Shown: piece by piece, positions 9,391 through 38,800 of the stretch | Numbering within the stretch: position 1 is the first letter of the stretch | Layout: each line of letters begins with the position of its first letter | From: an uncultured Candidatus Bathyarchaeia archaeon | Lineage (GTDB): Archaea > Thermoproteota > Bathyarchaeia > Bathyarchaeales > Bathyarchaeaceae | Length of the DNA: 64,000 bases | Reading direction: 5' to 3' | Assembly (NCBI GenBank): GCA_964623205.1 | Contig: CAZUQX010000006.1 | Location: forward strand, 45,354-109,353 | Notes under the pieces: model-generated | Told to the model about the DNA's origin: nothing | Databases searched by the model: none | What the model saw: the letters and a program-made list of their open reading frames with translations, nothing else | Position numbers and translations under genes: made by a program

Positions 9391-12282
9391 ATGCGAAAAA
9401 ATAGGTTAAAAAGCGTCCTACCTCATCTTGTTGTGTCATTGTTGATTTTAACTTCTTTGAGCGTTTACTATTCTCCATTGGGAATAGCAATAAGAGAAGT
9501 TGAGGCAAGTCAATCCGTTTCAGTCAACTGGTATTATAGTGGATGGCAATATCGAAAAGAACATAACATCATCATGGGTGCGAACGTTACGGGTGACCCT
9601 CTTTTCTATGATGTTTCTAATAGTTGGACAACGATCCAGGGGAATCCTGCTGAGAGGCATAATTTCCAACCAGTTCACAATACGGCGATTATGGAGGTCA
9701 ACAAAGTGGTTGACGGGGCAACCCGAAAATATTTGGCATATGACTCTGATCCCGATGGTTTAGAAATAAGACTTTACTTCACGAATGACATTGATGGTTC
9801 TTGGACGGCTTATTCGGGAAACCCAATTCTAGGATCAAGTTCGTATCTTTATAGGTGGCCTTCGGTTGCTTATGTTAATGGAACTTTTCATATGTTCCTA
9901 ACAGATCGAACAAGCAATACCATAGAAAGATGGACAAGTACTGATGGAATTAACTTTAATTTTCAAGAAAATGTTCAATCGGGAACTACAGGAGAAAACA
10001 CTAAAAATCCCTTTATATGGCTTAATCCTAATGATAACAAATGGTACCTATATTGGCATGATGCACGCGGGGCGCAAAGGGATCTATACGTTAGAAACGC
10101 CACAAATATTGAGGATTTAGACGCAGCAAACGATACCACAATTCTTAGCCGAAGCATTCCTTTTGGTGGACCATCCATAATGTATTACAACAACCAATAC
10201 TGGTTGCTAGCAGAAATTTTGCAATACGGAAAATGGAAAACAGCAGCATACTATTCGACGACATCTCCATCCTCAGGATTTATTGAATGCGATAACTCGC
10301 CTATTCTGAGCGATGACGAATGCTGTCCAATGCTTCTTTTAAATCCAAATCAAACTCGAGCCTACTTGTTCACTACCAGAGATAGTTCGAGATGGTATCA
10401 AGATACTCGAGAAGTTTACATAAATAAGACAGAGGCGCCAGACCTTCTTGACTATCAGATTAGAATCATGGCTTATTATGGAAGCGGAACTGACAGCGGA
10501 GAAAAAGTTTACTTAAATGGGCATCCAAGAACAGATTTTGGTGATGTCCGTTTCACATGGTTCAATTCTTCATCCGGCTTAGAGGTTGGATGTGATTATT
10601 GGATTGAGGAGTTGAAAATGAGTGAAAGTGCACTGTTTTGGGTTAAAGTTCCAAAAATATCCGGTAAAGGCAATAGCACAATATACATTTATTATGGGAA
10701 AAGTGATACGGCAACAACAAGTAATGGAAATAACACATTCGACTTTTTTGACGATTTTAGCGGAACTCTAAGCAAATGGGTAGTGATAGATGGAACGTGG
10801 CAAATAGAAAACGGAGAACTCAGTTCCCAAACCACTACTTTTGGTCAGCGCATCAGAGCTAGTGGGTTCACTTTTGGCAATCACAGTGTTCATGTTAAAA
10901 TAAAGTGGATTTCTGGCTCATATTTTGAGTCCGCCATAGAAGTGAGAGGACAGTCGCCAAGCGAGCAAAGTGATGGGTATTTTACATTTCTGAGTGCATA
11001 TCCTTATTTAGACAGGTATAGAATAGCTAAAATGTCAGGTGGTTCAGAAACAACTATTGAGGGTACAGGAGCTACGAATCCTTCAAAAGATTTTTGGTAT
11101 AATTGCGTGTTCAAACTTTATGGAAATACACTGAAAGGGAGTGTCGATCCGCTTTACTCAACGCAAATCGCAGGAACTGATAGTGCCTTCCGTAGCGGTA
11201 CTCTATGTCTTCTTCACTGGTCTATGTATGCGGAACATGTGCATTACGATGATTTATTTGTTTGCAAATACTTCGATCCCGAGCCCGCTCATGGCAATTG
11301 GGGAAGCGAAGAAACAGGTGAGTACGTTTTAATAGATCAAACATTTGTTAGCGATGAAAGAGCAGATATAGGCAGTATTCAAACGATTGGATTCCATGCT
11401 AAATGGAACAATATTGGTTCTGACGTGGTTGGAGGCAACATTTACGTTAATGGTACTAACTACGTTACAAATAGCACAGGATGGGTAGCCTTCAACGTCA
11501 ACTCACCCCTCGTCGGAAAAGACATTTGGATCGTCACAGAAGTCAACTGCAGCGGCATAACCATGTACATGCAAACAGCCCAGCCTCCAAGCATAATCTG
11601 GGACCGAATAAAAATCACAGAAGGAGAAACCACAAAAGAATCCCTAACCTTAGGCGAAACCGCAACTATTTGGTTCAAAGCCATATACGAATACGACAAC
11701 ACCGCCTTCACCAGCACAAACGGAACCCTCTACCTAAATGGATCCCCAATGACATGGTCCGCTACCAACACACGATGGGAATATACATACACCGCAACCT
11801 CCGCCGGAACAGCAACCTTCACAATCTCAGAAGTCTATGACAGTTCCCAAGGCTTAACAACAATCAACGACACAGTAGGAACCCAAACCATAACAGTCTG
11901 GTCAACACCATTCTCAATAATTACTAACTCAACGATCTCCGAATTAACTTTCAACTCCACAAGCAAAACAATAACCTATATAGTAAGCGGACCAACAGGA
12001 ACCATAGGTCACACAAACGTAACAATAGTAAAAACCCTGATAGAAGACATAAACGACTTAAAAGTTTACATCGATGGAAACGAAATAAACTATACAATCA
12101 TCGACACAGTATCTTCATGGCTAATACACTTCACCTACACGCACAGCACACACAAAGTTATCATGGAGACAGGGTCGTTGCATACCAACGCATCATATGC
12201 ACTTTTACCTTACTCAGCTATAATCTTTATAATAGTTGTAATACTGCTAGTTCGTAAAAGAATTACTCGAAAGATACGCTAA
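9391..12282 (+). CDS. Large membrane-anchored surface protein: beta-propeller GH-like N-domain + DUF2341 + LamG/DUF1080-like + Ig-like repeats + C-terminal TM anchor
   Basis: An N-terminal signal peptide is present. The DUF2341-like stretch is 'DVRFTWFNSSSG...DYWIEE...ALFWVKVPKISGKGNSTIYIYYG'. The LamG-like stretch is 'FDDFSGTLSKWVVIDGTWQIENGEL'. The C-terminal half has many N-x-S/T sequons. The C-terminus is 'AIIFIIVVILLVRKRITRKIR'. Confidence 0.7.
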   Translation: MRKNRLKSVLPHLVVSLLILTSLSVYYSPLGIAIREVEASQSVSVNWYYSGWQYRKEHNIIMGANVTGDPLFYDVSNSWTTIQGNPAERHNFQPVHNTAIMEVNKVVDGATRKYLAYDSDPDGLEIRLYFTNDIDGSWTAYSGNPILGSSSYLYRWPSVAYVNGTFHMFLTDRTSNTIERWTSTDGINFNFQENVQSGTTGENTKNPFIWLNPNDNKWYLYWHDARGAQRDLYVRNATNIEDLDAANDTTILSRSIPFGGPSIMYYNNQYWLLAEILQYGKWKTAAYYSTTSPSSGFIECDNSPILSDDECCPMLLLNPNQTRAYLFTTRDSSRWYQDTREVYINKTEAPDLLDYQIRIMAYYGSGTDSGEKVYLNGHPRTDFGDVRFTWFNSSSGLEVGCDYWIEELKMSESALFWVKVPKISGKGNSTIYIYYGKSDTATTSNGNNTFDFFDDFSGTLSKWVVIDGTWQIENGELSSQTTTFGQRIRASGFTFGNHSVHVKIKWISGSYFESAIEVRGQSPSEQSDGYFTFLSAYPYLDRYRIAKMSGGSETTIEGTGATNPSKDFWYNCVFKLYGNTLKGSVDPLYSTQIAGTDSAFRSGTLCLLHWSMYAEHVHYDDLFVCKYFDPEPAHGNWGSEETGEYVLIDQTFVSDERADIGSIQTIGFHAKWNNIGSDVVGGNIYVNGTNYVTNSTGWVAFNVNSPLVGKDIWIVTEVNCSGITMYMQTAQPPSIIWDRIKITEGETTKESLTLGETATIWFKAIYEYDNTAFTSTNGTLYLNGSPMTWSATNTRWEYTYTATSAGTATFTISEVYDSSQGLTTINDTVGTQTITVWSTPFSIITNSTISELTFNSTSKTITYIVSGPTGTIGHTNVTIVKTLIEDINDLKVYIDGNEINYTIIDTVSSWLIHFTYTHSTHKVIMETGSLHTNASYALLPYSAIIFIIVVILLVRKRITRKIR

Positions 12283-21179: not shown

Positions 21180-21299
21180 CTCACAGAGCTCATTAGTGCG
21201 AACATAACTTTCTCCTTTCTTCGAACAATACCAAAAACCAGAGGTAGCTGAAGCTCCAAGATTTCATGCAATATGTCCCAATGTAGGTGGAAAACATCC

Positions 21300-22904
21300 A
21301 TGGAAAAAGCGTTGAAAATGGGAAAAGTCTCAGCAACCGGAAGTTTTCAACTGTTTGTTGGTGTGGCAACGTCCAGTGTAATAATGGCCGTTGGAGCAAT
21401 AATTTTGGCAAGACTGTTGTCACCTGCAGAATACGGGCTTTACACAGTGGCTTTGATTCCTTCAATGATGATAAATCTCTTCCGAGATTGGGGAGTGAAC
21501 TCCGCTATGGCAAAATACGTCGCACATTCTAGGGCGGCAGAAAAGAAGGAAAATGTACGCGACATAATAGCTGCAGGACTGATTTTCGAAATCTCAACCG
21601 GACTGGCCTTGTCGCTTCTATCAGTATTCCTCGCAGGCTCCATTGCCTCAACAATCTTTCATAGACCAGAGATAGCACCTCTAATATCCATAGTTTCCAT
21701 CACAATATTCTCAGGCTCATTATTAACAGCGGCTCAATCGAGCTTCGTTGGCTTCGAAAGAATGGAATTGCAAAGCATTACTCTCATCTGCCAAGCCGTA
21801 ATAAAAAGCGTGCTGGCACCACTACTAGTACTCCTAGGATTCGGAGCCCTAGGAGCAGTTCTAGGTTACACCCTCTCGTTTTTAGTCGCCGGTATCATCG
21901 GTTCTACCATACTATACTTCATTCTATTTAGGAATCTGAAAATAACCAAAATCAACCGATCCAAAACATTGAAAACCCTAAAGACCATGTTACATTACGG
22001 AGTTCCCCTTTCAATTTCATCTATCGTAGGAGGATTCCTACTACAGTTCTACGGTTTCATGATGGCATTCTACTGTAGCGACATAATGATAGGAAATTTC
22101 CAAGTCGCAACCAATTTTGCAATCCTCCTAACCTTTTTTACAATTCCAATATCAACCGTACTCTTCCCCGCCTTCGCAAAACTGGACCCACAAAACGAAC
22201 CCCAACTTCTCAAAACAGTCTTCACGTCCTCCGTGAAGTATACAACCATGCTTCTTGTACCCGCCACAGCAGCTATAATGGTCTTGTCAAAATCAATGGT
22301 TAGCACATTGTTTGGGGAACAATGGATTCATGCACCATTCTTCCTCACCTTATACGTTATAGGCAATCTGTTCTCAGGTTTCGGCAATCTAAGCATGGTA
22401 AACCTCTTAACCGGTCTCGGAGAAACCAAAACGCTAATGAAGCTGAGCTTGTTGACGCTGGTAATCGGTCTTCTACTAGCCTTTCTGCTGATCCCTCACA
22501 TGGGGATCGTAGGTGTCATACTTGGAAGTTTTTTTTCTGGTTTACCCAGTATGTTTTTGGGACTTCATTGGATCTGGAAATGCTATAAAGTCAAAGCAGA
22601 TTGGGAATCATCTGCAAAGATATTTGCAGCATCAATGATCGCAGCTGCAACCACCTATCTATTCCTAAACTTACTCAATACTGCTGAATGGTTAAGGCTT
22701 ATGACTGGTGGAATCGTTTTCTTAACCTCCTATATCATCGTAGCCCCGTATATAAGAGCAATCGTCCAAGATGACATCACCAATCTAAAACTCGCATTCT
22801 CCGGTCTGGGCTTCATTTCTAAGATAGCAAATCTGTTACTCGGCGTAGCAGAAAAAGTGGCTGGAATTAGTTCTGTGAGGAAAAAGAGTGAAAATATTAA
22901 ATGA
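21300..22904 (+). CDS. Oligosaccharide/polysaccharide flippase (MOP superfamily, Wzx-like)
   Basis: The protein has about 14 TM helices and an N-terminus of the type 'KGKVSATGSFQLFVGVATSSVI', typical of polysaccharide-biosynthesis (PST) transporters. The ATG at 21300 lies 9 nt after AGGTGG. Confidence 0.75.
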   Translation: MEKALKMGKVSATGSFQLFVGVATSSVIMAVGAIILARLLSPAEYGLYTVALIPSMMINLFRDWGVNSAMAKYVAHSRAAEKKENVRDIIAAGLIFEISTGLALSLLSVFLAGSIASTIFHRPEIAPLISIVSITIFSGSLLTAAQSSFVGFERMELQSITLICQAVIKSVLAPLLVLLGFGALGAVLGYTLSFLVAGIIGSTILYFILFRNLKITKINRSKTLKTLKTMLHYGVPLSISSIVGGFLLQFYGFMMAFYCSDIMIGNFQVATNFAILLTFFTIPISTVLFPAFAKLDPQNEPQLLKTVFTSSVKYTTMLLVPATAAIMVLSKSMVSTLFGEQWIHAPFFLTLYVIGNLFSGFGNLSMVNLLTGLGETKTLMKLSLLTLVIGLLLAFLLIPHMGIVGVILGSFFSGLPSMFLGLHWIWKCYKVKADWESSAKIFAASMIAAATTYLFLNLLNTAEWLRLMTGGIVFLTSYIIVAPYIRAIVQDDITNLKLAFSGLGFISKIANLLLGVAEKVAGISSVRKKSENIK

Positions 22905-22981: not shown

Positions 22982-23491
22982 ATGAGTAGAATCCGTTCCT
23001 TCATCGATTTTTTTAGATCTTTGGATAAAAAAGTATTGTTACTATTAATTGTCACTTTATCATCTATTGCCATCACTACTATAATACCTATATTATTAGT
23101 CAAGCACACAGATATATACATCCCAAGCATCGGAACCATAAAGACAATAGGTGTCGAAGCTTACTGGGACCGCGACAATGAAAACAAAACAGAAACAATA
23201 GACTGGGGCACAATCTGGATTAGGACATCAAAAAACATGACACTTTACATACGCAGTGTCAGTAACTATGAAGTAACTCTAAAGCTTAATGCGACAAACT
23301 GGATCCCCGCCAGAATTGCAGATTACATGACCTTATCTTGGGACTACAATGGAATGTCCATCAATCCAGGCGAAATTATCCAAGTAACACTGATTTTGTC
23401 AACTTCTTTTTCCGGTTCTTTCGTTAACTATCTGATCATCAACGATGTACAAAGCTTCTCCTTCGACATTCACATCGTCGCTTATGAATAG
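22982..23491 (+). CDS. Small exported/anchored beta-sandwich protein, paralogue A
   Basis: An N-terminal hydrophobic helix is present. The core 'GTIKTIGVEAY...IDWGTI...YIRS...NWIP...LSWDYNGMSINPGEIIQVTLIL...FSFDIHIV' aligns with the protein at 28627-29088. Confidence 0.6.
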   Translation: MSRIRSFIDFFRSLDKKVLLLLIVTLSSIAITTIIPILLVKHTDIYIPSIGTIKTIGVEAYWDRDNENKTETIDWGTIWIRTSKNMTLYIRSVSNYEVTLKLNATNWIPARIADYMTLSWDYNGMSINPGEIIQVTLILSTSFSGSFVNYLIINDVQSFSFDIHIVAYE

Positions 23492-23504: not shown

Positions 23505-23611
23505 ATCTAGAGAGTGGCACCTATAGAAGTTTCTTCTAGTTCCAATTTCCTTAAATGCTTAAATATACATACACAATTCTTAAGTTTCCATGGGCTTTAT
23601 GGGTATGTAAG

Positions 23612-24463
23612 ATGAAAAAACGTTTATCCTTCCTTCTCATTATTTTAGTCTTAATACTTATAGTCTCAACCAATATTATAAATGTGACTGCAGTTCAATT
23701 TTGGCATAAAGATACAACTACCAAAGGCAACTGGATTGAAAACGTTGGTGGCACATGGGTTAAAAATTATGGCCAAGACGGTTACATATTGTCCGCATTT
23801 GATTCACAGGGCCACAACAATGACGAATGGCAACAGAGCTTTGATAGAAAGAGCCTGCCACCCTACATAACCAATTACACGGTTTCAGGAACTGGAGGAG
23901 CGAGCCCATTGTCACCAGGAACCGCTGGAGTATACACCGTAGCTGCCCCAACCTCAGACGAGAGGGCTTTGATAGACCCAGATATTCTAGGCCACCCAGA
24001 CGTTCTAGACAAGAGAAGGGACACACACTGGTTCACCACCCCCAACGACCACCCAGACACAGTGCTCACAGTGGAATTGGAATTTTCAGGGACTGCACCT
24101 GAAAAAGTTTTCCACCTGTCGCTTTATTTCTTGAACACTGATCAAAACAATAAACTTAACGTCACAGTATCTGACGAAGAGCCTTTCGGTGCTCCACAAT
24201 CGTGGTCAGTAGTGATCGAACCTGATGAGGCAAAGACAGGGGTATACCTAGTGTTCACGGTCTATGGCCCCACAAAATTAGAAATAAGACTGTTTCCTGA
24301 AAATAATTACAATCCCTGCATTTCCGGAATATTCATTGATTCAATAACCTTGCCGTCCCACGTTATTCCCGAAGTTCCCTTAGGCACAGTATCAGCATTA
24401 ATTGCATGTTTTATACCGCTAATGCTGCTGAAAAAAATAAAAAGAAAACATGCAAGTGAGTAG
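23612..24463 (+). CDS. Secreted protein with HVIPEVP-type (PEF-CTERM-like) C-terminal sorting signal
   Basis: The signal peptide is 'MKKRLSFLLIILVLILIV'. The C-terminus is 'SHVIPEVPLGTVSALIACFIPLMLLKKIKRK'. Confidence 0.7.
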   Translation: MKKRLSFLLIILVLILIVSTNIINVTAVQFWHKDTTTKGNWIENVGGTWVKNYGQDGYILSAFDSQGHNNDEWQQSFDRKSLPPYITNYTVSGTGGASPLSPGTAGVYTVAAPTSDERALIDPDILGHPDVLDKRRDTHWFTTPNDHPDTVLTVELEFSGTAPEKVFHLSLYFLNTDQNNKLNVTVSDEEPFGAPQSWSVVIEPDEAKTGVYLVFTVYGPTKLEIRLFPENNYNPCISGIFIDSITLPSHVIPEVPLGTVSALIACFIPLMLLKKIKRKHASE

Positions 24464-24539: not shown

Positions 24540-26579
24540 ATGTCTAGCGTATTTCGAAGCATACTCTTAAAATTTAAGAAACATTATCTTCTTGTACTCT
24601 CAGCTATTCTAATTCCGCTAATGATTTTGATTGTATATTCGCAGGACCTTTCTATCCTAGTCAACGAAGCTTTGCATAGTGAAGCAGTAAGCCATGTCGT
24701 TCTTGTTCCATTTTTAATTTCTTATATCGTGTACAGGAAAAGAGATGTAATCAGGGCTACTTCTGAATTTGAGAAGCTACGGCAGCGTTCAAGAACATCT
24801 GTCTTAACTGAGGTTGTCGGCATAAGTTTCTGTCTCTCTGCTTTTCTAATATATTGGTACGGCTCATCTACCTTCAATCCACTAGAATATCACCTTATCT
24901 CTCTTCCCATATTCCTTACAGGCATATTGCTCATCCTTTTTAACCTGAAAATGGTCATTATACTCATCTTTCCAATTCTGTTTCTGTTGTTTCTCATACC
25001 AATCCCCACGGAAATAACATACACAGCAGGAGCGTCAATTGGAAACTTTGCCACACAAGCCTCTTACACATTACTCAACACGTTTGGTCTGCCCGTAGCT
25101 CTGCAATCTGCTTATGGACCTCCAACAATTACAGTCAACACTCCTTCTGGCGCACCAATGCTATTTGCCGTAGATTTAGCATGTTCAGGAATCTATTCAT
25201 TAATTGCGTTCATAACGTTTGCCACTTTTTTAGCCTATATCATTCAAGGTTCACTCCTCAAAAAGGCTGGTTTATTTCTTCTTGGTTTCATAATATTGCA
25301 ACTACTAAATGTCATTCGAATATCCACAATTGTGGCGGTTGGCTACTGGTTTGGCGAAGAAATTGCCATGGCAATATTCCATGTGGCAGCAGGATGGATT
25401 CTCATCTTCGGTGGAATATTGCTGCTCCTACTGATTGGTGAAAAGCTTTTACATCTCAAAATATTTCGCGGTTCAAATGAAACCCCCTCATGCTCCAAAT
25501 GCATCACCAGCCTCCAAAAACAAGAACTATTCTGCTCATACTGTGGAAAATTTCTTAAAAACTTGAAAGTTCCAATAAAAATTTCAGGACGATTTTGGGT
25601 AAAGGTTACGGCTCTGCTGGTTGGTCTATTTCTAGTTGCTTCGAGCATACAAGCGCCAGTATTCGCTTTTGCCCAAGGATTAACGTTTACAAATCCCAAC
25701 TTGGAAGATAGTACTGAAGTTTTCCCAGAGTTTACAGGCTACCAATTGATTTTTCTTTATCGAGACGCTGAATACGAAAAACTAGCTAACCAAGATGCTT
25801 CACTCCTCTATGCTTACATACCTCTAAACATGTCCACACCAACAGTTTATGTTGACATAGGAGTTGCAGATTCGATAACTAATCTCCATAACTGGGAAGT
25901 ATGCTATGTTACCATGCAAATTTCGCAGGGACGTCAACCATTGGTATCAGTGCTCGATTCTAGGGACATTCAAATTGTGGAAAACCCTCCTATAATCGCC
26001 CGCTACTTCGTCTTCGACAGCCTTGAAAATTACACTCAAATTACTCTCTATTGGTACGAAAAAGCGTTGTTCAACACAGGCCTCACTGTTGAATCAAAAT
26101 ACGTTAGAATAAGCCTGCTAATTCTAGCACCAGATTCAACAACATACCCCATACATGAGGAAACATTACTGCAATTTGCGCTGTCAATTTCAACATTTTG
26201 GGAACCGCTAAAAACACAATCCATTCTTTCTCTAAGCGTTCCTCTTCAGCAATTGCTCCTTGGTGCCTCAATACTTTCCATAATTGTCATCGGGACTACC
26301 CAATACACGCAAAAAGGGAGAAAAAAAATGAGCAACCTAAAGATTTTTGAAAGATTCATTCAGCCGAGTGAAAAGATGCTATTTCAAATTGTAAAGAAGG
26401 CAAATGAAAGAACTGGAGCTTCAACTAGAGAAATTGCTCACGCTCTTGAACAAGCCACAAGCAAACCCGTTGAATCAGAGGAGTTAATTCGTATGTTAAA
26501 GCATCTGCAAGAAAATGGGCTTGTAGAAATTGATATCATAACCAAAAATGATGAGCCGCAACTTGTTTGGAAGCCCTAA
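24540..26579 (+). CDS. Archaeosortase-family protein fused to a zinc ribbon, an EpsI-like ectodomain and a C-terminal wHTH
   Basis: The signature residues appear in context: 'VDLACSGIYS' (Cys215), 'LLNVIRIST' (Arg260) and 'FHVAAGW' (His281). These are followed by 'CSKC-x10-CSYC', a TM helix, the EpsI-like 'SITNLHNWEVCY', another TM helix, and a tail containing 'GASTREIAHALEQ...NGLVEIDI'. AAGGAGGG lies upstream of the ATG. Confidence 0.8.
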   Translation: MSSVFRSILLKFKKHYLLVLSAILIPLMILIVYSQDLSILVNEALHSEAVSHVVLVPFLISYIVYRKRDVIRATSEFEKLRQRSRTSVLTEVVGISFCLSAFLIYWYGSSTFNPLEYHLISLPIFLTGILLILFNLKMVIILIFPILFLLFLIPIPTEITYTAGASIGNFATQASYTLLNTFGLPVALQSAYGPPTITVNTPSGAPMLFAVDLACSGIYSLIAFITFATFLAYIIQGSLLKKAGLFLLGFIILQLLNVIRISTIVAVGYWFGEEIAMAIFHVAAGWILIFGGILLLLLIGEKLLHLKIFRGSNETPSCSKCITSLQKQELFCSYCGKFLKNLKVPIKISGRFWVKVTALLVGLFLVASSIQAPVFAFAQGLTFTNPNLEDSTEVFPEFTGYQLIFLYRDAEYEKLANQDASLLYAYIPLNMSTPTVYVDIGVADSITNLHNWEVCYVTMQISQGRQPLVSVLDSRDIQIVENPPIIARYFVFDSLENYTQITLYWYEKALFNTGLTVESKYVRISLLILAPDSTTYPIHEETLLQFALSISTFWEPLKTQSILSLSVPLQQLLLGASILSIIVIGTTQYTQKGRKKMSNLKIFERFIQPSEKMLFQIVKKANERTGASTREIAHALEQATSKPVESEELIRMLKHLQENGLVEIDIITKNDEPQLVWKP

Positions 26580-26779: not shown

Positions 26780-27235
26780 ATGAAGAAAATAATGTTTCCA
26801 TTAGTTACGCTATTACTGGCGTCCTTTCTGCTGATAGGCATGGCTCAAGCTGTGTCTGTTGTAGTTACCACTCTCCCAGAGACGATGATCTCTGGAGAAT
26901 CAACAATAATAACCGTCACTTGTGATGTAGAAGCTTCCGGGTCAATAACGGTCTATACCCCTTCTGGCGATCCATACGCAGTACCCATAGCAGTATCAGC
27001 AGGGGGTTCAGATTCAGCAACGTATCCCGATGACTTCCTAGGCGCAAGCTCAAGTGAGATTGGAGAATATGAGGTTACCGTCGTCCTCAGTGGGGAAGAA
27101 TTCAAAGCGAGTTTCTGGGTATCCTTTGGAGTGCACATGGTGCCTGAGATTCCGATAGTTGGAACGGTTGGTGCCATAGCAGCTATGTTGTCAGGCCTCG
27201 GACTTTTCATAGTCAGAAAAAGAAGACCAAAATAA
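26780..27235 (+). CDS. Small secreted protein with HMVPEIP-type C-terminal sorting signal
   Basis: The signal peptide ends '...LLIGMAQA'. The C-terminus is 'VHMVPEIPIVGTVGAIAAMLSGLGLFIVRKRRPK'. The core 'YPDDFLG...EIGEYEV' is shared with the protein at 33811-34416. Confidence 0.7.
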   Translation: MKKIMFPLVTLLLASFLLIGMAQAVSVVVTTLPETMISGESTIITVTCDVEASGSITVYTPSGDPYAVPIAVSAGGSDSATYPDDFLGASSSEIGEYEVTVVLSGEEFKASFWVSFGVHMVPEIPIVGTVGAIAAMLSGLGLFIVRKRRPK

Positions 27236-27435: not shown

Positions 27436-28332
27436 ATGACCCCCTCTGCTACTAAAGCTTTAGAAGATTCACAGAAAGAAAACGAGCGGTTAAAGCATGA
27501 AATGCTGAGGTCCAAAAAAATTCCTTCTAACAAAATCGGAATTGCATTACTAATCATTGGAGCACTGCCGCTCTCCCTTTCCATCATAGCTTCATCAACG
27601 ATTCTGCTTCCCGCTTCCATCATAGCTTCCTCAACGACTCTTACTTTTATCGGGTTAGCACTGACATTCTGGGGAATCCTATTCCTCTTCGCTAGACCAA
27701 CTAAATTCGTAAGAAGTAATCTCTTGGATTCCACCGCCATCTCATCCTACACCACAATCGATCGAATAATAGATGACCTGAACTACAAGGGAAAATGCAT
27801 ATACATACCGCCATATCCCAAGGAAGCATACATCCCAGAACACATGAAAGGACTAAAAGAAATGATCGTCTTCATTTCAGCTAAAAAAACCACAGGCATC
27901 CCCACTATAGAAGAAATGGCAAAAAAGCAATTTTTAGTCAAAAATCCTAAAGGAATATGCATTACACCTCCAGGTTCGGGTCTCGTAAGCCTTTTTGAAA
28001 GTGAATTGAAAAGGAACTTCACAGAGATCATTCAGGAGAGCCTTTACGAGAGTTTACAAACAGTCATCGTGAACAATTTAGAATTAGCTAGCAACTTTGA
28101 GGTCAATCCTGAAAACGAACTAATTCACGTAACAATCACCAATTCAGTCTACAACGACCTCTACTCCAAAGAACAGAAACTGAAAAGCGTTAACACTGTT
28201 GGATGCCCATTAACAAGCGCCATAGCATGTGCCCTAGCCAAAACAACTGGAAAATCTGTGACCATAAACAAGAATAACATTTCTCCGGATTTAAAAACCG
28301 TTGAAGTATGGTATCAAACCTTAGAAGGTTAG
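27436..28332 (+). CDS. Membrane protein of unknown function (N-terminal coiled segment, 2-3 TM helices, soluble domain of about 200 aa)
   Basis: ATG start. The TM region contains an in-frame 36-nt tandem duplication ('SIIASSTILLPA' / 'SIIASSTTLTFI'). I recognise no family motif. Confidence 0.5.
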   Translation: MTPSATKALEDSQKENERLKHEMLRSKKIPSNKIGIALLIIGALPLSLSIIASSTILLPASIIASSTTLTFIGLALTFWGILFLFARPTKFVRSNLLDSTAISSYTTIDRIIDDLNYKGKCIYIPPYPKEAYIPEHMKGLKEMIVFISAKKTTGIPTIEEMAKKQFLVKNPKGICITPPGSGLVSLFESELKRNFTEIIQESLYESLQTVIVNNLELASNFEVNPENELIHVTITNSVYNDLYSKEQKLKSVNTVGCPLTSAIACALAKTTGKSVTINKNNISPDLKTVEVWYQTLEG

Positions 28333-28336
28333 ACTA

Positions 28337-28543
28337 GTGGAATTTCCTCTTTCTATGTCAGACATTAGCCTTTGGATAGCAGTCATGGCAATAATTTTGC
28401 TTATAACCTCCGAACTCATAGCTCAACACTCAGATACCTTCGGAGACTTCGCCATAGACAAGACACGACTGCGCCTAGTAGCTCTTATACTAGGCGCCTC
28501 ATTCTTGGTCACAGTGATAATGCGAATATTTTCACCATTTTAA
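28337..28543 (+). CDS. Small 2-TM membrane protein
   Basis: The GTG start lies 5 nt after the previous stop. The two hydrophobic helices are 'LWIAVMAIILLITSELIA' and 'LVALILGASFLVTVIM'. Confidence 0.4.
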   Translation: MEFPLSMSDISLWIAVMAIILLITSELIAQHSDTFGDFAIDKTRLRLVALILGASFLVTVIMRIFSPF

Positions 28544-28626: not shown

Positions 28627-29088
28627 TTAGCCGCTTCCAACTATTGTGATGTCGAAACTAAAGGTTGTTATACCCTCAATGCTTGCTGACACAATTAACG
28701 TGAACGTAACTTGGATCACATCATCCGGGTTGAGTGTCTGCCCGCCGTAGTCCCAGCTGAGTTCTAGGTAACCTGAAGCAGCTGAGGGGTTCCAGTTCGA
28801 GGTGTACATCGATAGCGTCGATGGACCGGTTCCTTCGCATCTAATGTAACATACAAAATTTTGGCTTGATCCTGGCTCGAGTGTTCCCCAAGGAATGGAA
28901 GTTACTGGAGTTGTGCACGCGGCATTCGAATAGACACCGACTCCAATAGTCTGTATCGTTCCTGAACTCGATAATGTTTTAGTCGTTTGGAGTGCAGGGA
29001 ATGCTTGACCCACTAAAGTTATAACCAATGTGTAGGCAGCGATTATGACTATGGAGCCTGTGAGTATTGCTTCCTTCTTTTGCATCAA
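28627..29088 (-). CDS. Small exported/anchored beta-sandwich protein, paralogue B
   Basis: 'GTIQTIGVGVY...IPWGTL...YIRC...NWNP...LSWDYGGQTLNPDDVIQVTFTL...FSFDITIV' aligns with the protein at 22982-23491. Confidence 0.6.
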   Translation of the reverse strand: MMQKKEAILTGSIVIIAAYTLVITLVGQAFPALQTTKTLSSSGTIQTIGVGVYSNAACTTPVTSIPWGTLEPGSSQNFVCYIRCEGTGPSTLSMYTSNWNPSAASGYLELSWDYGGQTLNPDDVIQVTFTLIVSASIEGITTFSFDITIVGSG

Positions 29089-33810: not shown

Positions 33811-34416
33811 CTACTTGGATTTCACTCGTTTTATGACTGCTAGCGCTGGAATTGCACTAATCATTCCCAATAATGAAACTATTGTACCTACAGGAACTTC
33901 AGGTATGACATGAACAAGAAATAGAGTACAATCGAACGCTGTTTCAAAGAGGCAGCAACATTCTCCATCTTCCCAAGAGATGAAAGCAAAAATTACTTTA
34001 TATTCACCCATTAATTCTGTGCTTGGCCCCCCATTGATACCATTGAAATCATCCGGAAAAACCACGGTTTCACTTCCTCCTCCTGCATCAGGAAAGCTAA
34101 CTACCTTAAAAGAAACAATTTTCCCTCCTATCTTATCCGCGAGCTCTGTCTGAATATTACTTGGTAAATTGTTGTACAACGCTTTAAGAGCCGGATGAGC
34201 GCCGAGAAAGTCCATCCAAGGTGTTCCTTCAGCTGGTTGAACAACAATTAATATCCCGATTCCCCTTTCGTTTGCCATGACAGTTATGTTCTGATCTTCA
34301 AGTGGCATAATCTCAGTATTTTCGACACTAACATCAACATCTAAAGAAGCGTATGCTACAGAAGAGAATATGAGAATTAATAATGGAATAGCTGCTGCTA
34401 AATATCTTGCTTTCAT
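33811..34416 (-). CDS. Secreted protein with HVIPEVP-type C-terminal sorting signal
   Basis: The signal peptide is 'AAAIPLLILIFSSVAYA'. The C-terminus is 'VHVIPEVPVGTIVSLLGMISAIPALAVIKRVKSK'. Confidence 0.7.
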   Translation of the reverse strand: MKARYLAAAIPLLILIFSSVAYASLDVDVSVENTEIMPLEDQNITVMANERGIGILIVVQPAEGTPWMDFLGAHPALKALYNNLPSNIQTELADKIGGKIVSFKVVSFPDAGGGSETVVFPDDFNGINGGPSTELMGEYKVIFAFISWEDGECCCLFETAFDCTLFLVHVIPEVPVGTIVSLLGMISAIPALAVIKRVKSK

Positions 34417-34644: not shown

Positions 34645-35226
34645 ATGAAAAAATTTGCCGGTTTATTGATTATTCTGGCGTTAGCCGTAACAGTGTTTGC
34701 TGGAATATCAACTTCAGTTAATGCTGTGGTGATAGATGGTGACTATAAAGTCGAGCTTGTTAGTGTAGTTTACAATCCAGGCACAAACCTACAAAATTGG
34801 ACATACAACATATCCTGTATAAATAGCCCTGGAATAAGCCACATTATCTTTGAATTCAAAGAGATTTGCGACCCCCCGCTTTCAGCAATAGATGATGCTG
34901 GTCCTCCTCCTGTAGAAATCTCAGAAGATTATGACGACGACGATCCGACGACTGGCAAAGTTGGAATAAAGTTTGACGAACTCGAAATGGAACCTGGTGA
35001 ATGGACATTAGTGTGGTTCACTTTGGTAGGAGAATGGCCTGTTGGATCAATTGAAGTGTGGGTTAAAGCAGCAAATGACGTTTTAGTATCCGGTATAGTT
35101 GACGGACCAGAATGTATTCCTAACCATGTTATTCCTGAAGTACCCTTCGGTGCTGTCATGGCAAGCGCGTCAATGCTGGTTGCGTTAGTAGCTTATTCGA
35201 TATTGCGCAAAAGAAAAATTCAATAA
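34645..35226 (+). CDS. Secreted protein with HVIPEVP-type C-terminal sorting signal
   Basis: The signal peptide is 'LLIILALAVTVFAGISTSVNA'. The C-terminus is 'NHVIPEVPFGAVMASASMLVALVAYSILRKRKIQ'. Confidence 0.7.
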   Translation: MKKFAGLLIILALAVTVFAGISTSVNAVVIDGDYKVELVSVVYNPGTNLQNWTYNISCINSPGISHIIFEFKEICDPPLSAIDDAGPPPVEISEDYDDDDPTTGKVGIKFDELEMEPGEWTLVWFTLVGEWPVGSIEVWVKAANDVLVSGIVDGPECIPNHVIPEVPFGAVMASASMLVALVAYSILRKRKIQ

Positions 35227-35370: not shown

Positions 35371-35646
35371 TTACCCTGGCAGTAGCCATTTGAGGGGTAT
35401 GTCTTGGTATGTTCCGTCTGGGAGGGTTCTTCGGATAGTGAGAGGAAGTGTCTTCGTATCTAGCTCCAAGAGCGCGATGTCAATAGGACCGGCGCGGGCT
35501 TCTGGAGACTGGATAATGATGGGAGCGCCCATAGCAATCTGTAGGGCCCTAGCTCCTACTATCCGAGCTCTCTCAAACCGAGTCAGTTTAGAAGGCCCGA
35601 TGGAAACTTCGGTCTTCTCGCTCGTTTCTCTAGAACGCTCCTGCAC
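35371..35646 (-). CDS. rpoK: DNA-directed RNA polymerase subunit K (Rpo6)
   Basis: '[23 protein letters not shown]' is the Rpo6/RpoK core. The only in-frame starts are GTG 35646 and GTG 35691, and both overlap the thermosome 3' end. Confidence 0.85.
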
Positions 35647-37306
35647 CTGGAGGTCCCATTCCCATTCCGCCCATTCCTCCCATTCCACCACCGCCTGGTG
35701 GCATTGGAGGAGTCTTCATTTTTCCTGAAGCTATTACATCATCAATCTTTAGGATCAAAGTCGCGGCTTCGGTACAGGATTTGATAATCTGCTTTTTAAC
35801 CACTATGGGCTCGAAGACACCAATTTTTTCCATGTCTCCAGCTTTGCCAGTGTTGACGTCAACTCCTGCCCAAACTTCTCCCTTCTCATGGTGAGCTCTT
35901 AATTCAGATATAATGTCAATAGGATCAAGTCCAGCGTTCTCGGCTAACGTGGTGGGTATTGCTTCAAGAGCCTCGGCGAACTGCATGACCGCGAGTTGTT
36001 CTCTTCCAGGAAGCGACTCGGCGTATTCCCTGAGAACTTTTGCGACCTCCATTTCTGGTGCACCGCCTCCAGCCATAATCTTTGGTTCCTCAACCACATC
36101 TCTTACAACACAGAGGGCATCATGTAATGAACGTTCTGCCTCGTCAACTATTCTCTCGGTTCCTCCGCGTATGAGAATTGTGACCGCCAGCGGATTTTTG
36201 CATCCTTCTACGAAGGTCATCTTGTCGTCGCCGATTTTCCGTTCTTCTACGAGTTGGGCGTAACCTAGGTCTTTCGCGTTCAAGTCATCTATGTTTGTGA
36301 CAACTTTTGCGCCTGTTGCCTTAGCTAAAGCTTCCATATCTGATTTTTTTACTCGGCGAACCGCTAAAACATTCTTCCTAGAGAGGAAGTGTTGAGCTAG
36401 GTCGTCAATGCCTTTTTGGCAGAGGATGACTGTTGCGCCTTTGGCGACAAGCTTCTCCACCATATCTTTTATCATATTCTCTTCTTGTTTGAGGAAAGCG
36501 TCCATTTGCTCTGGGCTTTCAATATTTATTTTTGCGTCGAACTCGGTTTTCTCAATCTCAAGGGCAGTATCTATCAAAACGATTTTTGCTTTCTCCACCC
36601 TTTTTGGCATGCCGGAGTGAACAACCTCTTTGTCAAGAACTATGCCGTTTATGAGTTTTGTATCTGTAAGGGACTCACCAGGTTTTTTCTCCACATTGAC
36701 GTTGTCAATATCCACTTTATAGCCGCCTCCAGTCTTTACGGCAACTTGGAGAATCGCCGAAGTAGCAATCTCACCTAGATATTCCCTACTTCCTGCCACC
36801 AGCTTGCTAGCCATGGAGGTCATGGCAACTTTCTCGATGGCCTTTTTGTCGGTGGGACTGATTGTTATCGCGATTTTTTCTAGAGTTTCTAGCGCTTTGT
36901 CAGCGGCTTTTCGGTATCCGTCGATGATGACTGTTGGATGAACATTTTTGTCTATGAGAGTTTCAGCTTTTGAAAGAAGTTCTCCTGCTATTATTACAGA
37001 ACTGGTTGTGCCGTCTCCCACTTCGTCGTCTTGGGTTTTGGCAACCTCCACCATCATCTTGGCGGCGGGGTGTTGAATATCCATTTCGTCTAGAACTGTG
37101 CGTCCGTCGCTGGTTATAGTTACGTCTCCGAAACTGTCTACCAGCATCTTGTCCATTCCTCTTGGTCCAAGGGCGCTCTTTACTGCTTCAGCTACTATTT
37201 GCGCAGCCATTATGTTGGCGTGCTGGGCTTCTTGCCCTCTTGACCGGGATGCTCCTTCACGGAGTATGAGAACAGGTGTTCCAGCTAATCCAGAAGACAA
37301 TCTCAA
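35630..37306 (-). CDS. ths: Thermosome subunit (group II chaperonin)
   Basis: '[39 protein letters not shown]', 'VGDGTTS' and the C-terminal '[11 protein letters not shown]' tail. The TTG start sits behind AAGGAG. Confidence 0.95.
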
Positions 37307-37657: not shown

Positions 37658-38800
37658 CTATCTAAGTCCTTTTTTACTTGCATTCTGGATTAGAGTTTTC
37701 CACTTGTTCTTGCCTTCTATCTTTATTCCGCATGCATCGGCAGGTGTTTTCCCATCTAGTCCTTCGTGTTCTCTAATAAAATTGTGGTATATTTGATAGC
37801 CTCTAAGAATTGGCGTATCTTTGTTTTTCAATCCTCTCATGACCTTTTCTCTGTCTCGGATTTCACCGTTTAGGCGTTCCATTTTGTTGTTGTTCATGTC
37901 ACCTTGAATCTTGATATGACGAATATGCTTGGTTCTTGGGTAGCGAAGAGTTCTAAATTCTTTTTTGTATGCGATATTGTAAGACCTGAGTCCATCGGTT
38001 ATCAGGGTTTCAGGTTTCTTTCCAGTTACCTTTTTGGCTAGTTGAAAGAGTGTTCTTGCGTCATGTTTGTATTTGGTTTCAGCAACTTCTTGAGCAATCC
38101 AGTAACGAGTTTCATCATCCATTATGGCAAAGACGTATTTCATGTCGCCTTTGAATTTCATCCAAAGCTCATCTGCTCTCCAAGTGTCAGACACATTAGG
38201 AGTTAGTTTCTCGATGTATTTTTCCATTAGTCCGATGTACTTCTTTATCCACTTGTAAACTGTAGAATGAGCAACTTCTACTCCAAGAAGCCTAAGCGAT
38301 TTCTGAGTATTCCTAAGTGATTCTCCGCTAAAATAAAGTTGCATAGCTGTCGTTATCGCCTGTGGGTTGTGCTTCATGCGTTCAAATCCAACATTGAAGG
38401 AGAAGTATTTCCTACAGTTTCGGCAATAGAACTTCTGTATCTCTCCATGCTTGTTATGGCGAACCCCATCCTTCACTATGTCGGTTGATTTACAGTAAAT
38501 GCAAGAAGAAACAGTCGTTATTGGAGTTATCCGCTTGGACTCAACCTTTTTCCTTAACGCTAAACTAAATTCCACTGCAAAGATGTGTTTGCACTTGACA
38601 TGGCGGTAAATGTGGTCGGGGCAACTGCACATCCAACCAATGCTAGATTTCAAAACTTCGTATTTGCCGTTACCCGATTGGCTCTTAACCTCAAAAACAG
38701 ACTCCTCAAAAATCGCCACTTGACCACGAAGATGAGCTATCTCTTTTCCCCGTTCTTCACGAGCTTTAAGTTGTGCAGTTGTTATCATTCCATTCACCAC
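37658..38800 (-). CDS. DDE transposase, IS6-family-like, with N-terminal SWIM-type zinc finger
   Basis: The SWIM-like motif is 'CSCPDHIYRHVKCKHIFAV'. The DDE core comprises 'WRADELWMKFKGDMKYVFAIMD', 'LITDGLRSY' and 'NNNKMERLNGEIRDR'. Confidence 0.8.
   Translation of the reverse strand: MVNGMITTAQLKAREERGKEIAHLRGQVAIFEESVFEVKSQSGNGKYEVLKSSIGWMCSCPDHIYRHVKCKHIFAVEFSLALRKKVESKRITPITTVSSCIYCKSTDIVKDGVRHNKHGEIQKFYCRNCRKYFSFNVGFERMKHNPQAITTAMQLYFSGESLRNTQKSLRLLGVEVAHSTVYKWIKKYIGLMEKYIEKLTPNVSDTWRADELWMKFKGDMKYVFAIMDDETRYWIAQEVAETKYKHDARTLFQLAKKVTGKKPETLITDGLRSYNIAYKKEFRTLRYPRTKHIRHIKIQGDMNNNKMERLNGEIRDREKVMRGLKNKDTPILRGYQIYHNFIREHEGLDGKTPADACGIKIEGKNKWKTLIQNASKKGLR

Follow-up and report, generated by a model that had tools for sequence, protein, structure and literature searches.

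The PEP-CTERM/exosortase system of exopolysaccharide loci comprises the exosortase XrtA/EpsH together with EpsI (Haft et al. 2006, PMC1569441). In this system EpsI is fused or adjacent to the exosortase, the locus is linked to polysaccharide biosynthesis genes, and the substrates end in VPE(P), a transmembrane (TM) helix and a basic cluster. The VPLPA-CTERM exosortase XrtD (TIGR04152), also bacterial, carries EpsI in the same chain: an eight-TM Cys/Arg/His core is followed by one TM helix and an outer EpsI domain, after which the protein stops (~510-540 aa). The archaeosortases ArtA to ArtG (e.g., ArtA/PGF-CTERM of Haloferax volcanii) bear the superfamily signature TIGR04178 and presumably perform Cys/Arg/His transpeptidase chemistry on tripartite C-terminal signals of the PGF or PEF type; as far as we know, neither an EpsI domain nor a zinc ribbon or winged helix occurs in them. 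To our knowledge, no function has been assigned to EpsI since 2006. Few archaea are as abundant in sediments as Bathyarchaeia, which are essentially uncultured, and we know of almost nothing that has been established about their cell envelope.

We analysed a stretch of 64,000 nucleotides from an uncultured Bathyarchaeia archaeon (contig CAZUQX010000006.1), hereafter the window, in which a single gene joins an exosortase core, a zinc ribbon, an EpsI-like ectodomain and a winged helix (Table 1). By comparison with XrtD, the protein keeps the order of core, TM helix and outer EpsI-like domain, but XrtD lacks the ribbon, the tenth TM helix and the winged helix, and the match of the window protein to the 486-position XrtD model is confined to the core (positions 3-246). 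The signals also differ, VPLPA in a bacterial host against VPEVP in an archaeal one. The XrtA system shares with the window system the link to polysaccharide genes and the general layout of the substrate tails, although its signal is P-E-P and that of the window clade is P-E-[VIY]-P. Moreover, XrtA-type EpsI is devoid of the His/Cys motif present in the window ectodomain, the regulators PrsK, PrsR and PrsT of the XrtA system were not seen at the window locus, and the window protein differs from XrtA in its archaeal host and in its extra cytoplasmic modules. With ArtA-ArtG the protein has in common the superfamily signature and the presumed chemistry, while its signal is neither PGF nor PEF. 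Taken together, this locus probably represents the Bathyarchaeia version of the PEP-CTERM/exosortase sorting system, built as one polypeptide. If so, the system of these archaea would be of the bacterial PEP-CTERM/exopolysaccharide type and not of the archaeosortase type.

Table 1. Features of the exosortase gene and its surroundings; coordinates refer to the window.
Feature	Coordinates	Strand	Description or basis
Wzx-type polysaccharide flippase	21273..22904	+	last gene of upstream glycan-synthesis island; Pfam Polysacc_synt_3, E 5e-31
Ig-like protein, 169 aa	22982..23491	+	N-terminal TM anchor and Ig-like domain; conserved neighbour
Candidate substrate, 302 aa	23555..24463	+	ends HVIPEVPLGT, TM, KKIKRKHASE; 77 bp upstream of exosortase gene
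Whole gene, 679 aa	24540..26579	+	core, ribbon, TM9, ectodomain, TM10 and winged-helix tail in one ORF
Eight-TM exosortase core, aa 1-305	24540..25454	+	PF09721, TIGR04178 signature, hhalign, residue conservation
Predicted catalytic Cys215	25182-25184	+	position in ORF
Predicted catalytic Arg260	25317-25319	+	position in ORF
Predicted catalytic His281	25380-25382	+	position in ORF
Cytoplasmic zinc ribbon, C318-x2-C321-x10-C332-x2-C335	25491..25544	+	Cys conservation
TM helix 9, aa 350-372	25587..25655	+	outward to ectodomain; hydropathy, helix 350-371 in model
Divergent EpsI-like ectodomain, aa 381-560	25680..26219	+	hhalign to XrtD EpsI
H450-x-W452-E453-x-C455 (HNWEVC, aa 450-455)	25887-25904	+	motif in ectodomain
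TM helix 10, aa 566-590	26235..26309	+	back to cytoplasm; hydropathy, AlphaFold2 model
Predicted cytoplasmic winged helix, aa 607-679	26358..26576	+	AlphaFold2 model, Foldseek
Candidate substrate, 151 aa	26780..27235	+	N-terminal signal peptide; ends HMVPEIPIVGT, TM, RKRRPK; C-terminal signal
DUF7982 protein, 298 aa	27436..28332	+	TM hairpin and ~210-aa predicted cytoplasmic domain; conserved downstream partner
Membrane protein, 68 aa	28337..28543	+	conserved after DUF7982; in 52/82 related loci
Paralog of 169-aa Ig-like protein	28627..29088	-	likeness to 22982..23491
Candidate substrate, 201 aa	33811..34416	-	ends HVIPEVPVGT, TM, KRVKSK; C-terminal signal
Candidate substrate, 193 aa	34645..35226	+	ends HVIPEVPFGA, TM, RKRKIQ; C-terminal signal

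Exosortase core and integrity of the fusion

The core matched PF09721 over residues 28-300 (E 6e-36; 124.6 bits, cut-off 25.7) and carried the TIGR04178 signature (63.1 bits, cut-off 23), and hhalign aligned it with the bacterial XrtA/XrtD cores with 99.7% probability (E 4.7e-27). Cys215, Arg260 and His281 are placed in the expected order on successive TM helices and were found in 96%, 100% and 100% of 92 homologs, respectively. The exosortase/archaeosortase core with its Cys/Arg/His signature, recognised in the initial annotation, was thus recovered by family models, and by homology the core is an exosortase with the triad intact. It was called an archaeosortase there; judging by the scores, it is nearest to the bacterial enzymes XrtA and XrtD, and no named archaeosortase comes as close, the best-scoring named family being XrtA (E 1.4e-27) and the best archaeosortase ArtC (E 2e-6). 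The cut-off of the individual family was missed by XrtA (96.7 bits against 208), 8TM_EpsH (89.4 against 105.55), XrtW (86.8 against 425), XrtD (69.7 against 400) and ArtC (27.6 against 100). Foldseek against the PDB gave no match at E <= 1e-3 for either model, and no solved exosortase was found.

The gene is a single ORF of 679 codons without interruption, as had been described, and the motif positions quoted at that time (C215, R260, H281, C318-x2-C321-x10-C332-x2-C335, HNWEVC at 450-455 and Met597 at nt 26328) were all correct. Its upstream region contains a TATA-like element as well as a GGAGG that resembles a Shine-Dalgarno sequence. The AlphaFold2 model of the full protein had a pLDDT of 77.8 and a pTM of 0.74. 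The identical protein was recorded in two sources, NCBI and Logan.

An ORF of this composition could have arisen by an error of assembly or gene calling in which independent genes further downstream were merged with that of an exosortase. A small number of database entries, ~310-350 aa long, do begin at TM9 (e.g., P0136) and might be split genes; most of them, however, start without Met and are therefore probably fragments at contig edges. Against such a joining, at least 120 clusters at 90% identity matched the protein, most of them of ~675-690 aa and almost all spanning 93-100% of the query. Searches for the same domain order recovered residues ~1-678 in at least 80 species-level Bathyarchaeia genome loci from independent assemblies, with identity down to 35%, and 66 of the 68 ORFs taken from these loci had a length of 650-799 aa. 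The same continuous architecture was also present on hundreds of metagenome contigs, and purifying selection acts on all modules of the fusion. With full-length homologs so common in clusters and genome loci, a frameshift or fusion artefact was rejected and is exceedingly improbable. The four-module architecture is genuine, and the enzyme is the regular exosortase across the class Bathyarchaeia and no rarity.

This regularity bears on the novelty suggested in the initial annotation. No published description of the architecture was found, and literature searches returned nothing on Bathyarchaeia exosortases, on exosortases with a winged helix or a zinc ribbon, or on DUF3485. As far as these searches show, the four-module protein is undescribed, and we know of no other exosortase with a zinc ribbon and a winged helix; its rarity, on the other hand, did not stand.

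EpsI-like ectodomain and its possible relation to the catalytic cysteine

The ectodomain follows the core and TM9 and is external in the predicted topology, which is the placement of EpsI in bacterial XrtD and in XrtA-EpsI fusions. Its kinship with EpsI, proposed earlier from the motif, was found by hhalign against the EpsI domain of XrtD (probability 84.5%, E 6.9e-6, 138 of ~180 columns), with HNWEVC (HxWExC) set on HSPxxC and the strand LYWY on YYWF. The XrtD templates used were verified as TIGR02914 EpsI (E 1e-35 to 1e-43), and none of 22 reversed or shuffled controls scored above 19.5 or reached a probability above 1.6%, while the real alignment scored 41.9. Only profile-profile comparison was sensitive enough for this likeness. 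The EpsI models PF11984 and TIGR02914 matched neither the window protein at E <= 1 nor any of 29 close C-terminal regions, hmmsearch with the ectodomain profile found no match in 120 bacterial exosortase loci, tblastn with the core against plasmids, aimed at annotated EpsI genes, found none, and a profile search of PDB sequences with the C-terminal region gave noise only. When 65 diverse ectodomains were isolated from their TM helices, PF11984 was the only family that matched more than two of them (5/65, best E 0.0011), and TIGR02914 matched one (E 0.099), both below cut-off. The likeness thus stands at the level of the profile alignment, with His and Cys in register, and not at the Pfam/TIGRFAM cut-offs.

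The model of this domain is an alpha/beta sandwich with pLDDT of ~85-95, whose nearest solved folds in Foldseek were 3lyd, PsbP, Apa and SciW, all weak (TM <= 0.5). It would be conceivable that an unrelated sandwich of the PsbP/Mog1/DcrB type occupies the same position and that the HxWExC likeness is due to chance, a reading with which the missed EpsI cut-offs, the unmatched 120 bacterial loci and the identity of these folds are all in agreement. Nevertheless, such a coincidence would have to account for an alignment well above its controls, for two separate motifs falling in register, for a position and topology equal to those of EpsI in XrtD and for PF11984 being the sole recurrent family, and we regard it as unlikely. 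The ectodomain is a remote homolog of EpsI.

Among 92 close homologs, H450, W452 and E453 of the motif were invariant, together with R260, H281, C321, C332, C335 and W677, while C215, C318 and C455 were kept in 96-97%. The two cysteines of the core and the ectodomain varied in concert: residues 215 and 455 were C/C in 233, S/S in 10 and mixed in 2 of 256 non-identical members. A Fisher test of this pairing ignores phylogeny, and the S/S members fall into three lineages. All of them keep R260, H281, H450, E453 and C98, and almost all the zinc-ribbon cysteines (one has lost C321). From this co-variation it is suggested that the EpsI domain takes part in catalysis; alternatively, a shared pressure against exposed thiols could produce the pairing with no joint mechanism. 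The paired Cys-to-Ser change offers a concrete, testable hypothesis, namely that EpsI contributes to the active site.

Membrane topology and cytoplasmic modules

Hydropathy and the AlphaFold2 model place the two TM helices that follow the core at ~350-372 and 566-590, in agreement with those recognised before. The zinc ribbon noted between the core and TM9 was upheld by its four cysteines, conserved in 97-100% of close homologs, and zinc-ribbon Pfam families matched 24, 13 and 10 of 65 diverse members below cut-off. The ribbon loop and the juxtamembrane stretch after TM10 are both basic (median net charge +4 in each case), whereas the ectodomain is acidic. This distribution agrees with the positive-inside rule and with the topology put forward initially, in which the ribbon and the tail are inside and the EpsI-like domain is outside.

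The tail, read from the sequence as a winged helix-turn-helix (wHTH), was predicted to fold as such. The model has the order H-H-H-E-E (helices 609-620, 629-640 and 646-658; strands 663-669 and 672-678; pLDDT 82-88), and Foldseek matched it to PerR/Fur and PadR-type winged helices with probability 1.00 and an rmsd of 2.2 Å over 69 columns. No wHTH family reached its cut-off; the weak matches were MCM4_WHD (E 0.017-0.049), Cdc6_C (E 7.5e-4, in one member) and MCM_C.

The same fold had led to the proposal that a DNA-binding tail couples protein sorting to gene regulation. The tail would act as a membrane-tethered regulator, in place or after its release, with transcription controlled by the enzyme or by a sensing EpsI ectodomain. 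Its best solved matches are indeed transcription factors that bind DNA, it is mildly basic in the closer homologs of the window protein (median pI 9.2, net charge +2.5), and the order of ectodomain, TM helix and wHTH recalls one-component membrane regulators. Regulators of the ToxR/CadC type likewise consist of one chain with a cytoplasmic winged helix and an outer domain on either side of a single TM helix, but in the reverse order, since the winged helix of the window protein is C-terminal. This winged helix shows no OmpR-type sequence signature, its surface is acidic to neutral and acidic at the wing tip, and it belongs to the same chain as an enzyme; the likeness is only topological. In a set of 65 diverse members, the domain had a median net charge of -1 and was positive in only 29%; helix 3 mostly started with acidic residues (positions 645 and 647), and the wing tip was D in 85% and acidic in 88%, with E/D next to it in 52%. 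The conserved positions were the core hydrophobics and the terminal P-x-L-x-W-K, while the surfaces of helices 2 and 3 were variable; a basic, conserved recognition helix and wing fit for DNA contact were not found in this set. An internal start at Met597 was also considered and rejected: 60% of diverse members have K/R at position 597, and since Met597 is not conserved, the family has no common internal start from which a winged-helix protein could be made on its own, and no separate soluble tail product is expected. With these features and without an HTH family at the Pfam cut-off, the tail does not resemble a regulator that binds DNA, and the proposal, which we hold to be rather improbable, was not sustained.

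A related idea is that the EpsI ectodomain and the winged helix form a transmembrane signalling arm, which would report on surface-protein or polysaccharide assembly through nucleic acid or a recruited regulator. Were this the case, the enzyme would be bifunctional and envelope maturation would directly control gene expression in Bathyarchaeia, but we give the idea little credence.

W677, within the terminal motif, was kept in 97-100% of close homologs. In catalytically degenerate paralogs it was retained in 13/13, and the zinc ribbon in most. This retention suggests that the winged helix and the zinc ribbon have a role independent of catalysis, and it points to scaffolding.

Candidate substrates, gene neighbourhood and possible mechanism

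Four ORFs of the window, two of them flanking the exosortase gene, encode secreted proteins with a PEP-CTERM-like tripartite signal at the C-terminus, in which [HN]-V-[VI]-P-E-[VI]-P-x-G precedes a TM helix and a cluster of basic residues comes last. The same or related signals (VVPEVP, VIPDLP, VVPEYP) were found beside homologs in the locus flanks of dozens of genomes, and canonical VVPEP tails beside homologs in divergent Bathyarchaeia loci; the signal of the product encoded just upstream of the exosortase gene also recurs next to homologs in other genomes. Curated CTERM models, including TIGR02595, gave no match at E <= 1 for the candidate substrates. The products of the flanking genes with a VPEVP-type signal are likely the substrates of the enzyme.

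The exosortase gene stands at the end of a glycan/polysaccharide synthesis island, which holds upstream genes for a UDP-GlcNAc 2-epimerase, a GT4 glycosyltransferase, a deacetylase, a methyltransferase and the Wzx flippase. The flippase gene was present in 25/82 related loci, and in P0163 and P0158 Wzx and the exosortase are in one ORF. Downstream, DUF7982 was encoded in 56/82 related loci, mostly directly after the exosortase gene and on the same strand; the DUF7982 protein encoded in the window shares 65% identity with the one whose gene comes immediately after the exosortase homolog in the related locus L001.

In the mechanism that we propose from these data, the enzyme would cut the VPEVP signal on the outer side of the membrane by way of an acyl-enzyme on Cys215, and the mature protein would then be passed to an acceptor, which may be a lipid or a glycan from the adjacent island. 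His450 and Cys455 of the EpsI motif would work with the catalytic Cys, in line with at least three lineages in which both cysteines have changed to Ser jointly. On the cytoplasmic side, the zinc ribbon and the winged helix would serve as a docking or scaffolding module and not as a DNA-binding output, a role suggested only by the composition of the surface and by the neighbouring genes. Likely partners of this module would be the membrane-tethered DUF7982 protein or the basic cytoplasmic tails of the substrates. On this basis Bathyarchaeia would gain a defined sorting enzyme, a signal (VPEVP-CTERM) and a conserved cassette of exosortase, DUF7982 and the 68-aa protein. Enzyme and signal are named by no curated model, and therefore genome annotation would benefit from their description.

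The 169-aa Ig-like protein was 55% identical to its counterpart in L001 and was present in ~45/82 loci. In P0157 and P0196 it was fused to a degenerate EpsI-like domain.

Architecture and exosortase core

The residues quoted in the initial annotation (C215, R260, H281 and C318/C321/C332/C335) were all found where it had placed them, as were HNWEVC (residues 450-455) and Met597 (nt 26328), and hydropathy showed the eight-helix core and, beyond it, TM helices around residues 350-372 and 566-590. Upstream of the ATG lie a TATA-like and a GGAGG element. The proposed union of all the modules in one gene is not an artefact: the same full-length order is seen in Bathyarchaeia genomes, and NCBI and Logan both contain an identical protein. 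At least 120 clusters (90% identity), mostly of about 675-690 aa, were recovered, nearly all aligning over 93-100% of the query with 51-80% identity. The profile of the C-terminal 299 residues matched 342 clusters at 50% identity (1.84 billion representatives searched), and among the best 150 of these 342 the ectodomain, TM helix and tail occurred together in every full-length match. A GTDB scan with one genome per species gave 102 relatives, from which 80 loci were kept; these match residues ~1-678 with identity down to 35%, 66/68 ORFs recovered from them are 650-799 aa long, and all are Bathyarchaeia MAGs except one contig in a 'Sulfotelmatobacter' bin. Since full-length homologs recur across its genomes, the four-module protein (core, zinc ribbon, ectodomain and winged-helix tail) is the regular exosortase across the whole archaeal class Bathyarchaeia. 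The exception, locus L046 (DATGZD010000171.1), is a family member whose 5-kb contig was placed in the bin of an acidobacterium, 'Candidatus Sulfotelmatobacter'; because every other match is from Bathyarchaeia, it is probably a binning error and not a horizontal transfer. Some genomes hold two family loci (e.g. L043/L044 and L028/L048).

Pfam Exosortase_EpsH spans residues 28-300 (E 6e-36), and the core passes the NCBIfam superfamily signature TIGR04178 (63 bits vs cut-off 23). Among 92 homologs, R260 and H281 never vary and 96% keep C215. The window protein reached the cut-off of no named NCBIfam family; the top ones are bacterial (XrtA, 96.7 vs cut-off 208; 8TM_EpsH, 89.4 vs 105.55), and the best-scoring archaeosortase model, ArtC, gave 27.6 vs 100. 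The core-family profile matched bacterial XrtA/XrtD cores with 99.7% probability (E 4.7e-27). The earlier archaeosortase call is thus sustained at the level of the exosortase/archaeosortase superfamily but not in its label: considering that the scores favour XrtA/8TM_EpsH, together with the XrtA/XrtD profile match, 'exosortase' is judged the more accurate name, and the protein belongs to an unnamed exosortase subfamily.

Ectodomain and the Cys215/Cys455 pair

The ectodomain had been proposed to be EpsI-like. EpsI HMMs gave no match in the window protein or in 29 close C-terminal regions. When 65 diverse ectodomains were scanned after removal of the TM helices, PF11984 (DUF3485/EpsI), the sole family matching more than two members, hit 5/65 (best E 0.0011), and TIGR02914 and EpsI_type_B matched one each (E ~0.1); in all these scans the defining EpsI HMMs stayed below cut-off. 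Bacterial exosortase loci were then drawn from metagenomes with a DNA pattern encoding EACSG[LIV]RY (encoded in 119/120 loci; proteins mostly 500-540 aa), and NCBIfam assigned example proteins to XrtD or XrtA with a C-terminal TIGR02914 EpsI (E 1e-30 to 1e-43). Many of these exosortase-fused EpsI domains carry ...YVAYYxSQRKGxSxHSPxxC[IL]PGGGW, the motif to which the initial annotation referred with its H-s-P-e-v-C core. By hhalign, the Bathyarchaeia ectodomain profile matched 35 bacterial EpsI domains with 84.5% probability (E 6.9e-6, 138 columns), H450 and C455 standing opposite the His and Cys of HSPxxC and the LYWY strand opposite YYWF. The score was 41.9, and the controls (reversed alignments, 20 column shuffles and unrelated profiles) did not exceed 19.5, or 1.6% probability. 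With the motifs in register and the match far above controls, we conclude from these profiles that the ectodomain is probably a divergent EpsI, even though HMM cut-offs are not reached. Its AlphaFold2 model is a confident alpha/beta sandwich (pLDDT 82), whose best matches to solved structures are weak (3lyd, PsbP, Apa, SciW).

Two motif types occur in the bacterial EpsI domains of loci L084-L203: HSPxxC[IL]PGGGW, XrtD-like, and ...ELvSSxNxL, without His/Cys, XrtA-like. The Bathyarchaeia ectodomain resembles the former.

Residues 215 and 455 were tabulated in 256 non-identical full-length members: 233 are Cys/Cys, 10 Ser/Ser, 2 mixed, and 11 lack both cysteines. The Ser/Ser relatives form three lineages (the P0069/85/91/93/111/117 clade; P0134; P0253/265/269), and the only mixed ones are P0140 (Ser/Cys) and P0239 (Cys/Ser). 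Because Ser/Ser members retain R260, H281, H450, E453 and C98, and nearly all the cysteines of the ribbon (C321 is missing from one member), the swap is specific to the 215/455 pair. By parsimony over a neighbour-joining tree, position 215 changed 10 times and position 455 changed 8 times; the Fisher p-value for the association, 1e-29, ignores phylogeny. The paired state is a new clue to EpsI function. Several of the 11 members without both cysteines also lost R260 or H281, and they are apparent pseudo-enzymes. When these 11 are joined with the 2 mixed members, all 13 still have W677 and 9-11 of them have the ribbon cysteines, which suggests a catalysis-independent role for the cytoplasmic modules. 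The catalytic Cys is gone, often with Arg or His, in relatives P0209, P0217, P0219, P0222, P0236, P0243, P0254, P0256 and P0257, apparent pseudo-enzymes that all still have W677 and mostly the zinc ribbon.

Zinc ribbon and winged-helix tail

The predicted zinc ribbon, C318-x2-C321-x10-C332-x2-C335, has four cysteines that are 97-100% conserved in close homologs. It is mostly retained in diverse members, with sub-threshold double-zinc-ribbon matches in 24/65, and its basic loop (median charge +4) fits a cytoplasmic side.

In both models of the tail, helices at 609-620, 629-640 and 646-658 are followed by a hairpin (663-669 and 672-678), with pLDDT 82-88. Foldseek gave probability 1.00 to PerR/Fur and PadR-type winged helices (e.g. 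rmsd 2.2 Å, 69 columns), with weak E-values, as expected for a domain of 70 residues; Pfam winged-helix matches (Cdc6_C, MCM4_WHD, MCM_C) were all sub-threshold. The modelled fold therefore agrees with the winged helix first proposed. It had also been postulated that this tail is a DNA-binding output coupling sorting to regulation. Among close relatives of the window protein the tail is mildly basic (median +2.5, range -9 to +11). Over 65 diverse members its median net charge is -1, and a positive value occurs in only 29%. Acidic residues prevail at positions 645 and 647, where helix 3 starts; the wing tip carries Asp in 85% of members and an acidic residue in 88%, and Glu/Asp comes next in 52%; and conservation is limited to core hydrophobics and a terminal P-x-L-x-W-K (W677, 97%), leaving a variable surface. 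Considering this neutral to acidic charge, the acidic wing tip and the confined conservation, the pattern is unlike that of a conserved sequence-specific DNA binder, the DNA-binding output is not supported, and we lean slightly towards a non-DNA-binding role for the tail.

Sorting signal, gene neighbourhood and proposed mechanism

Four ORFs of the window share a tripartite end formed by H-[VM]-[IV]-P-E-[VI]-P-x-G, a TM helix and a basic cluster; none of them is recognised by the curated CTERM models. In the gene flanks examined in many other genomes, the same signal or a variant (NVVPEVPFGT, NVIPELP, VIPDLP, VVPEYP) lies close to the homolog, at most some hundreds of bases away, and more divergent family loci have canonical VVPEP / VPEP PEP-CTERM-like tails.

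Features of the window surrounding the exosortase gene
Feature	Coordinates	Strand	Remarks
DUF2341 surface-type protein	9391..12282	+	963 aa; TM helix and basic cluster end, without VPEVP
TM anchor + Ig-like domain small protein	22982..23491	+	type present in ~45/82 loci
Candidate substrate	23555..24463	+	tripartite C-terminal signal; directly flanks exosortase gene
Four-module exosortase ORF	24540..26579	+	single uninterrupted 679-codon reading frame
Candidate substrate	26780..27235	+	tripartite C-terminal signal; directly flanks exosortase gene
DUF7982 protein	27436..28332	+	65% identical to annotated one in locus L001
68-aa membrane protein	28337..28543	+	downstream cassette with DUF7982 gene
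TM anchor + Ig-like domain small protein	28627..29088	-	type present in ~45/82 loci
Candidate substrate	33811..34416	-	tripartite C-terminal signal
Candidate substrate	34645..35226	+	tripartite C-terminal signal
Thermosome (Cpn60/TCP-1) gene	35630..37306	-	adjoins IS240-type transposase
IS240-type DDE transposase	37658..38800	-	N-terminal zinc-ribbon-like segment; adjoins thermosome gene
MBL-fold, ComEC-C-terminal-like protein	55441..56379	+	TIGR00361, E 9e-41; ends ...PIPEFNISL + TM + RKK
PQQ/beta-propeller-like surface-type protein	59616..61862	-	748 aa; TM helix and basic cluster end, without VPEVP

The DUF7982 gene accompanies 56/82 related loci and the 68-aa membrane protein 52/82, mostly immediately adjacent and on the same strand. 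Pfam gave no DUF7982 match for the protein at 27436..28332 itself, whose L001 ortholog is annotated as such. A glycan-synthesis island lies upstream (UDP-GlcNAc 2-epimerase, DUF2206, methyltransferase, deacetylase, GT4, DUF362, GFO/IDH/MocA oxidoreductase and Wzx flippase); on the thermosome side, the adjoining transposase indicates that a mobile element bounds the surface-protein island. Bacterial PEP-CTERM is associated with exopolysaccharide loci (Haft et al. 2006, PMC1569441), an association mirrored by the Bathyarchaeia exosortase and its glycan island.

Two relatives, P0163 (1209 aa) and P0158 (957 aa), have a complete four-module exosortase joined to a Wzx-type polysaccharide flippase in one apparent ORF; these putative fusions would be a Rosetta-stone link from glycan export to protein sorting. 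Relatives P0157 and P0196 (~345 aa) fuse a TM anchor and a 'GVEAYWD' Ig-like domain, the counterpart of the small protein encoded upstream of the exosortase, to an EpsI-like domain with a decayed His/Cys motif (LHDWEEVL, LLALESLY), and this fusion suggests that Ig-like proteins and the EpsI domain act together.

The exosortase-EpsI fusion has an intact catalytic triad, co-encoded VPEVP-type tails and a polysaccharide-locus link. In the proposed mechanism, Cys215 would attack the sorting signal at the outer face, acting together with the EpsI His450/Cys455 motif, and a lipid or glycan would then accept the mature protein. On the cytoplasmic side, the zinc ribbon and winged helix may serve as a docking platform, for which the DUF7982 cytoplasmic domain or the basic substrate tails are the best candidate partners. 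Taken jointly, the enzyme and substrate assignments are held with good confidence.

Fusions of an exosortase to EpsI are familiar from XrtD, XrtW and XrtA-EpsI. The models and literature searched do not describe the addition of a zinc ribbon, tenth TM helix and winged helix, nor the VPEVP variant, the conserved DUF7982 cassette or the Bathyarchaeia restriction.

The tail of the MBL-fold protein is PEF-CTERM-like and differs from the VPEVP signal; it could be a sign of another sortase system in this genome.
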